Source of the DNA: Escherichia coli
GTDB lineage: Bacteria; Pseudomonadota; Gammaproteobacteria; Enterobacterales; Enterobacteriaceae
Strand: one strand, 5' to 3'
Assembly: GCF_003334765.1 (NCBI RefSeq)
Contig: NZ_QOWT01000001.1
Length of the DNA: 64,000 nt
Shown here piece by piece: positions 60,401-64,000 of this stretch. Made by a program: the position numbers. Within the stretch, counting starts at the first letter, position 1. Each line of letters starts with the position of its first letter.

Positions 60401-63400
60401 ATTAACGGTAAGTCGAAATCGCTCAGTGAGTTGTTCATGACCCACCCGCCGCTGGATAAACGAATTGAAGCTCTGCGTACGGGTGAATACCTGAAGTAAT
60501 ATGAAGTAAATACTAAAAAGCGCGTCCTGATCGACGCGCTTTTTTTATGCCCTGGATCGTGGCTGAGTGATACGTAAACCACTGACACAGGCAGCAATCA
60601 CTGCCAGAATAGCCGCAGCCATCAGCGAGACGTGTGTACCATTATCTCCAAACTGATTTAGCATCAGCGCCACCAGCGCCGCGCCGCTACTCTGACCCAG
60701 TAGACGAGCCGTTCCTAACATGCCACTGGCTCCACCGCTACGTTCGCGAGGCGCGGAGGTAATAATGGTGTGGTTATTGGGTGACTGGAATAAGCCAAAT
60801 CCAGCACCACATAAGATCATCGGCCAGATAATATTGATATCCGCAGGTGACGCGGGCAGCAGAACCAGGGAAAAAAGCCCCGCAGCCATGATGAACAACC
60901 CTAAAGCCCCCAGCAATCCTGCATGTACGCGTTCAATCAAATAGCCTGCCAGCGGAGCCATCACCATCGTTGCTAACGGCCACGGTGTCAGAAGTAAACC
61001 TGTTTCGACTTCACTACGCCCGAGCACGGTTTGCAGGTAAAAGGGCAGGGAAACCATTGCCAGCATTTGTGCGCAGAAAGAGCAAACAGATGTGCAAATA
61101 GAAAGTGAAAACAGCGGGATACGCAGTAAATCCACCGGTAGCAGCGGTACGGGAAGAGAAAGCTGGCGGCGAATAAAGAAAATACCAACAACAACCATTA
61201 CCACCAGTTCCGCAGCAATTAACGTCAGCGATTGCCCCTGAGCGAAACCACTCAACGCAGTGATAAGCAGGCCGAAGGTTAACGCGTTCATCACGGCGCT
61301 GGGCAGGTCGAAACGGGGTTTACTGGCGCGAGAACCATTGGGTGGCAGAAAACGCATCGCCAGAAGCAGGGCGATAATACCTAACGGTACGTTGATTAAA
61401 AATAACCATTTCCAGGATGCGATGGAGAGGATTGCTGCAGCAATTGTCGGCCCGGCAGCAGAAGAGACGGCAACAATAAACGAGTTTATGCCCATCCCTC
61501 TACCCAGAAAACGTTGTGGATAGATCAGGCGGATAAGTGCGGTATTAACGCTCATCAACGCTGCACCGCCGAAACCTTGTATGACACGCGCAAGGGTGAG
61601 CATTTGCAGCGAATCAGAAAGGGCGCAGAACAGTGAAGACAACAGAAAAACGACCAGACCGCATTTATAAATACGTCGATAGCCAAACATATCGCCCAGA
61701 AACGAAAACGAGAGCAGGGAGATGACAATGGCGATTTGATAGGCGTTCACTACCCAGATGGAACTGGCTGGCGTGGCATGAAGGTCCGTGGCGATTGTTG
61801 GCAGGGCGACGTTGGCGATTGCGCCGTCAAGGACGGCCATCGAAATACCAATCACAATGGTTAATATCGCACCGTATCGCTGGGGCAATGGCAGGCCGTC
61901 GGCCTGAACTTTTGGCATAGGAATTTTATATCTTTGGTGAATAATCAACAGGGGTATGATTCTAGCACTGATATTCACGGTGGATGTCGCAGAATTGTAA
62001 CTAACCGGCAAAAGATGGATTGCGACCACCCTGGTGCGAAATTATAATAAAAAACAGTTCTGATTTTTATAAAACACTCGCAATGAGGTGATAAATGGCT
62101 AACGCAGATCTGGATAAACAGCCTGATTCTGTATCTTCCGTGCTAAAAGTTTTTGGCATTTTGCAGGCGCTGGGTGAAGAGCGCGAAATAGGGATAACCG
62201 AGCTGTCGCAGCGCGTCATGATGTCAAAAAGCACCGTTTATCGCTTTTTACAGACCATGAAAACCTTAGGTTATGTGGCGCAGGAAGGGGAGTCGGAGAA
62301 ATATTCCCTGACCCTGAAATTGTTTGAACTGGGCGCTCGCGCGTTACAAAACGTCGATTTAATTCGTAGCGCAGATATCCAGATGCGTGAGCTCTCCCGC
62401 CTGACCAAAGAAACTATCCACCTCGGCGCACTGGACGAAGACAGTATTGTTTACATTCACAAAATTGACTCTATGTACAATTTGCGCATGTATTCACGGA
62501 TTGGGCGTCGTAATCCGCTGTACAGCACCGCGATTGGTAAGGTACTGCTGGCATGGCGCGATCGCGATGAAGTGAAGCAAATTCTTGAGGGCGTGGAGTA
62601 TAAACGCAGTACCGAGCGGACCATCACCAGTACAGAAGCGTTATTACCCGTTCTGGACCAGGTGCGCGAGCAGGGGTATGGCGAAGATAATGAAGAGCAG
62701 GAAGAAGGGCTGCGATGCATTGCGGTACCGGTATTTGATCGCTTTGGCGTGGTCATTGCCGGTTTGAGCATCTCCTTCCCGACGTTGCGTTTCTCTGAAG
62801 AGCGTTTACAGGAATATGTCGCAATGTTGCATACCGCAGCGCGCAAAATTTCTGCCCAAATGGGTTATCACGACTATCCGTTCTGATGAGAGTAAGAACC
62901 TGTCGGAATATCAAACAGACAGGTTCTTTATTTAGCATGAGAAAAATAAAGTTGAAGGTGGCGTTATATTAAACGCGCTTGCTATAAGAGTATTTTACTC
63001 AGGAGTGAGAATCTGGTTATTTATTGCCCTTAACCATTATCGACCACGATATTGCTTTTGCGTAACAGCGGGCAATCTGTTATCCCCAAAAAACCACTTT
63101 TAGTGTGCAAGTATTGTACCGTGCTGGTGCCTCTGGCAGTCAGATAGGTACATTGCAAACCTAATCCTGCGGCATTCTCTTTGCTTCCAATCAAAACGCC
63201 ATATCCGCTGAGTAATAATCCTATCCATACCAGTGCTATCAGCATAACTGTGCGAATGATGAATCGCATTACAACCTCTTCTCTTTTTATGTTCGCTTAA
63301 TCGTAGCGGCAATATGCGCTGAAGCAAGCGACTCATTCCGAAAAAGCACGAATATCGACATAGTTAGGCGCTGTTTAACTAACGCATGCTAGTTTAATGA

Positions 63401-64000
63401 CATAAGGTAGGTGAAACGGAGATTGGAGTGAAAAAGTTTCGATGGGTCGTTCTGGTTGTCGTGGTGTTGGCTTGCTTGCTGCTTTGGGCGCAGGTATTCA
63501 ACATGATGTGCGATCAGGATGTACAATTTTTCAGCGGAATTTGTGCCATTAACCAGTTTATCCCGTGGTGATATCATTTTTTCAGCACTAGATTTTCTTC
63601 CTCTCCAGCAGTGGTAGAATAGCGCCTCTACTCAGAGGTGGTGAAATGAACGAAGTTGTAAATTCAGGCGTGATGAACATTGCGTCTTTGGTTGTATCGG
63701 TGGTGGTTCTTCTTATCGGGCTCATCTTGTGGTTTTTTATCAATCGTGCCAGTTCACGGACTAACGAACAGATTGAACTGCTTGAGGCGTTGCTGGATCA
63801 GCAAAAACGTCAAAATGCACTGTTACGTCGTTTGTGCGAAGCAAACGAACCAGAGAAAGCAGATAAAAAGACCGTTGAGAGTCAAAAATCGGTTGAAGAC
63901 GAAGATATTATTCGTCTGGTCGCCGAACGATAATCCTTCCTCAATCTTGAGTAACCCCGTCGTTGAAGGGTTACTCAATTCATCCTGATTATACGCACTG

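Follow-up and report, generated by a model that had tools for sequence, protein, structure and literature searches.

This report concerns mgrB (also called yobG), the gene for MgrB, a feedback peptide that acts on PhoQ, as it occurs in a stretch of 64,000 nucleotides (nt) of Escherichia coli DNA (assembly GCF_003334765.1, contig NZ_QOWT01000001.1), referred to below as the window. We consider it practically certain that the open reading frame (ORF) at 63428-63571 is the chromosomal mgrB gene of E. coli K-12, in an intact copy that does not differ from the reference. Upstream of it lies a direct repeat of canonical spacing that appears to be its PhoP site. None of this is new biology; mgrB is a well-studied small-protein regulator, and the allele found here, the wild-type allele of K-12, is already known. 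The features discussed are collected in Table 1.

The mgrB gene

With the initiator GTG read as methionine, the frame specifies a product of 47 residues with exactly the sequence of MgrB from E. coli K-12. Translation encounters neither an internal stop codon nor a frameshift, the defects on which a first-pass annotation, made from the sequence alone, had let its own reading depend; that reading, an intact MgrB of 47 amino acids (aa) begun at GTG 63428, is borne out. The NCBIfam equivalog model NF007635 (MgrB) aligns with the product from end to end—residues 1-47 on model positions 1-47—and gives 89.9 bits, the cut-off being 40 (E = 8e-26); the Pfam family PF13998 (MgrB) also matches, with 66.0 bits (E = 2.8e-18). 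The RefSeq mgrB coding sequence (CDS) of strain MG1655 (WP_000714550.1; b1826) lies at exactly the same position. Comparison with a reference copy, proposed earlier as a check, found the 144-nt ORF identical to that of MG1655, and the surrounding DNA is identical as well, with 0 mismatches in the 3,231 bases compared (60770-64000). In the RefSeq annotation of MG1655, mgrB has yebQ, kdgR and yobH upstream and yebO, yobF and cspE downstream.

Table 1. Features of the mgrB locus, by position in the window
Feature	Position	Strand	Description
Homologue of Salmonella reverse PhoP box	63328-63346	-	Degenerate in E. coli (CTTTTTCGGAATGAGTCGC); function uncertain; placed by alignment
Putative PhoP box TAGTTA-GGCGC-TGTTTA	63361-63377	+	Direct repeat with 5-nt spacer; 10/12 consensus; 12 nt before the -10 hexamer
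Extended -10 TGcTAGTTT	63387-63395	+	Hexamer TAGTTT at 63390-63395; TGnTAnnnT invariant in 9/9 taxa
Antisense 62-aa ORF	63389-63577	-	ATG start; from the ORF list; judged a non-coding shadow of mgrB
Inferred transcription start	63401-63402	+	Placed by homology to Salmonella +1; leader of about 26-27 nt
Shine-Dalgarno GGAG	63418-63421	+	6 nt before GTG; read from the sequence; columns invariant in the nine-taxon alignment
mgrB CDS	63428-63571	+	GTG start, 47 codons and TGA (63569-63571); translation

MgrB consists of a short cytoplasmic N-terminus (K2, K3), one transmembrane (TM) helix running from about W6 to F24, and, in the periplasm, a tail some 22 residues long that contains C28 and C39 (PMC8404706). 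The hallmarks of the protein are all found in the translated ORF: a length of about 47 aa, a pair of lysines at the N-terminus, one hydrophobic helix with W20, and C28, C39, G37 and the C-terminal W47. The residues reported to be functionally important are K2, K3, W20, Q22, F24, C28, D31, F34, G37, C39 and W47 (PMC8404706), and all 11 are present.

The length of the ORF, taken alone, is no evidence of a gene; 47 codons are not beyond chance. What raises it above chance is the family match, the RefSeq annotation, and a bias of substitutions toward third codon positions. Substitutions were counted in orthologous loci from E. albertii, Salmonella, Citrobacter rodentium, K. pneumoniae, Cronobacter, Enterobacteriaceae C23F, Superficieibacter and Klebsiella sp. 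RIT-PI-d, which with E. coli make up the nine taxa compared throughout. These are fairly close relatives, since the homologue search reached the level of the Enterobacteriaceae, at identities of at least about 65%, and not Yersinia, Serratia or Proteus. The start codon is GTG in all nine, and K2, K3, W20, C28, G37, C39 and W47 are likewise kept in all. By codon position (1/2/3), the substitutions relative to E. coli number 5/3/17 in Salmonella, 13/3/24 in K. pneumoniae and 14/4/25 in Superficieibacter. A third-position bias in the plus frame is seen in five or six comparisons outside Escherichia; E. albertii (2/6/6) has none.

At its default minimum of 60 aa, the ORF list shows over this stretch only an antisense ORF of 62 aa, as the first-pass annotation had correctly remarked. 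mgrB is missing from it because 47 aa falls below the listing threshold; with the minimum lowered to 20 aa for comparison, the mgrB ORF is listed, as one of 33 ORFs of at least that size in the last 2 kilobases (kb). The antisense ORF begins with ATG, and no other ORF over the stretch reaches 60 aa. It could be supposed that this one is the real gene and the plus-strand ORF its shadow. We give this supposition virtually no credence, and it is effectively refuted already. The antisense product has no family match in NCBIfam, unlike the plus-strand product with its equivalog match, and RefSeq annotates no feature at 63389-63577. Its ATG is absent at the aligned position in six of the eight relatives, and in three of the eight the frame is broken by stop codons (two in K. 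pneumoniae, one each in Cronobacter and Enterobacteriaceae C23F). Finally, substitutions track the codon phase of the plus-strand frame. We judge the antisense ORF to be a non-coding shadow of mgrB. The case illustrates that a cut-off of 60 aa can hide real small genes and show longer, antisense shadow ORFs in their place.

The promoter and the probable PhoP site

E. coli mgrB is activated by PhoP and responds to Mg2+ (PMC1964800, which cites Kato 1999 and Minagawa 2003); those two studies are credited, there and in PMC8355897, with reporting PhoP-P binding and phoP-dependent transcription in low Mg2+ for this gene. The first-pass annotation had left the PhoP site still to be located, having remarked only that an upstream repeat, TGTTTA...AGTTTA, lacks the canonical spacing. 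A canonically spaced box is in fact present. When every 17-mer across 63300-63430 was scored against (T/G)GTTTA-N5-(T/G)GTTTA, TAGTTA-GGCGC-TGTTTA at 63361-63377 was the clear top score, and a pattern scan reported the same segment as a match with two mismatches. We infer that this is the PhoP site of E. coli mgrB, TGTTTA being its promoter-proximal half and TAGTTA the upstream partner.

The principal guide here is Salmonella, in which the yobG (= mgrB) promoter has been footprinted by DNase I with phosphorylated PhoP (PhoP-P) and the transcription start mapped with S1 (Zwir 2012, PMC3335776). The Salmonella direct box, ACAGTTACTCCTGGTTTAA, is situated 12 nt upstream of the -10 hexamer TAATTT; 5 nt separate the -10 from +1, and the leader is 26 nt long (PMC3335776). 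This box is found exactly in the Salmonella locus compared here, at -67 to -49 from the GTG, where it aligns with E. coli 63360-63378 (ATAGTTAGGCGCTGTTTAA). Near the inferred +1, a conserved GACAT block also aligns between the two species.

The alignment of the nine taxa is consistent with this placement. Its invariant columns comprise GTTTAA (63373-63378), TG (63387-63388), TA (63390-63391), T (63395), GGAG (63418-63421) and the GTG start. The proximal half-site xGTTTA, the 12-nt spacing and TGnTAnnnT are kept in all nine, with C at the first half-site position in one. Allowing three mismatches, a loose PhoP-box scan of the whole window returned 159 matches against about 128 expected, and so is uninformative. 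The composite (T/G)GTTTA-N9-TGn-TAnnnT, by contrast, occurs once on the two strands of the 64-kb window, at 63372; only this combination of box, 12 nt and extended -10 is specific within the window. The mgrB promoter went undetected in a generic sigma-70 scan, as is to be expected given that promoters dependent on PhoP have no -35 hexamer. The scan reported two hits, located within the ORF or at its end, a number no better than chance (2 against 1.4 expected). When the full-text literature was searched with the E. coli promoter string GGCGCTGTTTA, nothing beyond chance matches in unrelated papers came up.

Could the two hexamers remarked upon earlier be the site instead? Both are present on the plus strand, TGTTTA at 63372-63377 and AGTTTA at 63391-63396, and the 13 nt between them is, as was said, a non-canonical spacing; the feature start proposed at the time, 63373, is one base inside TGTTTA. 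Each hexamer resembles the half-site consensus. As a pair, they are nevertheless very unlikely to be what PhoP recognizes. AGTTTA overlaps the -10 and is not conserved—it is AATTTA in Salmonella and ATCCTG in K. pneumoniae—and what is conserved instead is TGnTAnnnT. TGTTTA, for its part, has a canonically spaced partner upstream, TAGTTA. In Salmonella, it is the upstream pair that is footprinted, and the assigned -10 is TAATTT. Insertion sequences (ISs) point the same way: E. coli insertions located 21 to 46 nt before the mgrB start codon (-21 to -46) are reported to fall in the interval that separates the PhoP site from that codon (PMC8483737). One of them, an IS5 insertion at -46 (63382), is described as downstream of the PhoP site, which puts the site upstream of 63382. 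For half-site repeats in general, it seems prudent to compare them with the position of the -10 and with orthologous promoters before naming a regulator site non-canonical.

No substantive evidence speaks against our account of the gene and of the box at 63361-63377, but it has its limits. The upstream half-site, TAGTTA, agrees with the consensus at only 4/6 positions in E. coli, and at 2-4/6 in the other taxa. Both the E. coli +1 and the contact with PhoP are placed by analogy, from the Salmonella data together with conservation. At the other end of the gene, a scan of the interval between mgrB and yebO found no intrinsic terminator that would mark where the transcript stops, and the fold z-score there is -0.75. 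A structure search for MgrB returned no experimentally solved structure for comparison.

A possible second upstream box

The Salmonella promoter has a second box, GTTTTTAGGAATGATTCAC, in reverse orientation and further upstream (PMC3335776). It, too, is found exactly in the Salmonella locus, at -99 to -81 from the GTG, and aligns with E. coli 63328-63346. In E. coli the half-sites are TTTTTC, with only 4/6 consensus positions, and GAGTCG, with only 2/6; the block is partly conserved across taxa. Decay of this box might have left E. coli mgrB with a single-box promoter, akin to architecture I, whose feedback gain or PhoP-P threshold is perhaps unlike that of Salmonella; or the block might serve the divergent gene yobH. 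From the sequence, we regard these as rather doubtful suggestions.

The reverse-box homologue is contained in a conserved block, TGAAaCAAG...ATTCCtAAAA, at 63322-63346 in the yobH-mgrB intergenic region. On the minus strand, the same block presents a conserved TTG(C/T)TT, 16 nt, and TAnnnT/CAAAAT, a layout that would fit a sigma-70 promoter of divergent yobH. Control of yobH by PhoP through the upstream block was also entertained, and set aside because Salmonella yobH is seemingly not PhoP-regulated (PMC6726612).

MgrB function and proposed mechanism

Deletion of mgrB strongly raises PhoP-regulated transcription, the protein being a feedback inhibitor of PhoQ, and the homologues from Salmonella and Yersinia likewise repress PhoQ/PhoP signaling (PMC2789325). 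W20 is essential for complex formation (PMC8404706). Cross-linking and simulation place the contacts between MgrB and PhoQ along the TM helices and at the membrane/periplasm interface, and cationic peptides activate PhoQ in part through displacement of MgrB (PMC10576120). Inner-membrane localization, PhoQ binding and PhoQ inhibition are thus established by experiment for a protein identical to the one encoded here (PMC2789325, PMC8404706, PMC10576120).

In the mechanism that we propose, the promoter step is drawn from the Salmonella literature, and the translation and PhoQ steps from the literature on the same protein. In low Mg2+, or in the presence of cationic peptides, the sensor kinase PhoQ becomes active and phosphorylates PhoP. 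PhoP-P would occupy the direct repeat at 63361-63377—at the -35 position, 12 nt before the hexamer of TGcTAGTTT—and would recruit sigma-70 RNA polymerase to synthesize an mgrB messenger RNA with a short leader of about 26 nt. Translation from GTG 63428 then yields a bitopic inner-membrane peptide of 47 aa. This peptide binds PhoQ by way of W20 in the TM helix and of the periplasmic region, which C28 and C39 hold, and it represses the kinase, which closes a negative feedback loop. Loss of mgrB results in PhoPQ hyperactivation.

It might be argued that mgrB is present in this genome and yet impaired, by a cryptic loss-of-function allele or by a defect of the promoter. Such alleles do circulate, among them the frameshifted E. 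coli variants and the Citrobacter C28S protein described below among database homologues, and IS insertions in the mgrB promoter arise readily (PMC8483737). For this genome the probability is negligible: the sequence of promoter, leader and ORF agrees 100% with that of wild-type MG1655, none of the 11 residues reported as important is missing, and there is no IS element within 63328-63571. With gene and promoter intact, the genome should show normal PhoQ/PhoP feedback, and not PhoPQ hyperactivation. Inactivation of mgrB is a recognized cause of colistin resistance in Klebsiella, the genus for which that clinical outcome is mainly documented. In E. coli, loss of mgrB leads to trimethoprim tolerance (PMC8483737).

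Distribution, synteny and natural variants

The 381-nt segment around mgrB is 100% identical to that of many E. coli chromosomes, including K-12 MG1655, and 5424 of 5426 complete E. coli genomes contain it; promoter and ORF together (221 nt) are contiguous in 5423 of the 5426. Two complete genomes lack any match to the mgrB query, and one extra copy is carried on a plasmid. In strain 744 (NZ_CM132967.1), only the last 49 nt of the query remain, under the annotation of kdgR, which implies that a deletion has taken away the promoter, the greater part of mgrB and, presumably, yobH.

Gene order (kdgR-yobH-mgrB-yebO) is kept in the related loci (L002-L011), and yobH is called in all but one of them. 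The exception, Klebsiella sp. RIT-PI-d (L010, 615-800), differs from the other eight taxa in that no yobH is called between kdgR and mgrB; its mgrB promoter motif is intact.

Among the database homologues are several E. coli 'MgrB' entries (P0051, P0053, P0055, P0056 and P0008) that start with MGRSGCR..., corresponding to an ATG in the +2 frame at 63442, and then enter the MgrB frame. To judge from their sequences, these are frameshifted mgrB alleles that gene callers have rescued from another start. One Citrobacter MgrB entry carries C28S. Both this substitution and the frameshifted entries are probably natural or laboratory loss-of-function alleles.

Downstream of mgrB and elsewhere in the window

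Between mgrB and yebO, E. coli, Salmonella and K. pneumoniae share the sequence GTGGTAGAAT (63611-63620, plus strand) without any change. Part of it, TGgTAGAAT (63612-63620, plus strand), resembles an extended -10 for yebO, which may have a promoter of its own. Because the interval shows no terminator or significant structure, yebO may also be reached by read-through from mgrB.

An Rfam scan of the 62-64 kb region found no RNA family. Over the rest of the window, matches to described Rfam families of small RNAs at the gathering threshold are MicL at 13446-13753 (plus strand; 381.9 bits), the overlapping pair SraC/RyeA and SdsR/RyeB at 48950-49094 (both strands; 175.1 and 114.4 bits), and ES036/CssrF at 17689-17731 (minus strand; 45.5 bits).

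Comparison with known systems

The locus is indistinguishable from that of E. coli K-12 MgrB/YobG (b1826): the sequence of 47 aa, the GTG start, the kdgR, yobH and yebO neighbors and the upstream DNA are identical, and there is no difference to report. The name given to the protein varies. The NF007635 product name is 'regulatory lipoprotein MgrB', and newer PGAP annotations have 'PhoP/PhoQ regulatory lipoprotein MgrB'. A lipobox would require an essential, conserved L-A-C16, and this is not what is found: C16 is replaced by glycine in two taxa (Superficieibacter and Klebsiella sp. RIT-PI-d), and the substitution C16A leaves function unaffected (PMC8404706). The 'lipoprotein' label therefore looks unsupported, and MgrB acts as a bitopic membrane peptide.

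The MgrB of K. pneumoniae shares with that of E. coli its length of 47 aa, its synteny, the geometry of its promoter, and the residues K2, K3, W20, C28, G37, C39 and W47. The two proteins have different residues at 13 positions, most of them in the TM helix.

The closest counterpart to the promoter is that of Salmonella, which belongs to architecture II (Zwir 2012). In both species, the direct PhoP box ends 12 nt before a weak -10 (TAATTT in Salmonella, TAGTTT in E. coli), the leader is short (about 26 nt), and the proximal half-site, the TG of the extended -10 and GGAG are conserved. The differences are that the upstream half-site is CAGTTA in Salmonella and TAGTTA in E. coli, the proximal half-site GGTTTA versus TGTTTA, and the reverse box TTTTTA/GATTCA versus the much weaker TTTTTC/GAGTCG; in addition, the E. 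coli leader is one base longer.

Two other regulators, SafA (B1500) and UgtS, resemble MgrB in their small size, their bitopic placement in the membrane and their direct action on PhoQ (PMC10576120). Neither is related to MgrB in sequence, nor encoded at the mgrB locus, and SafA differs further in that it is an activator rather than an inhibitor, and in that its activity does not need the TM helix (PMC8404706).

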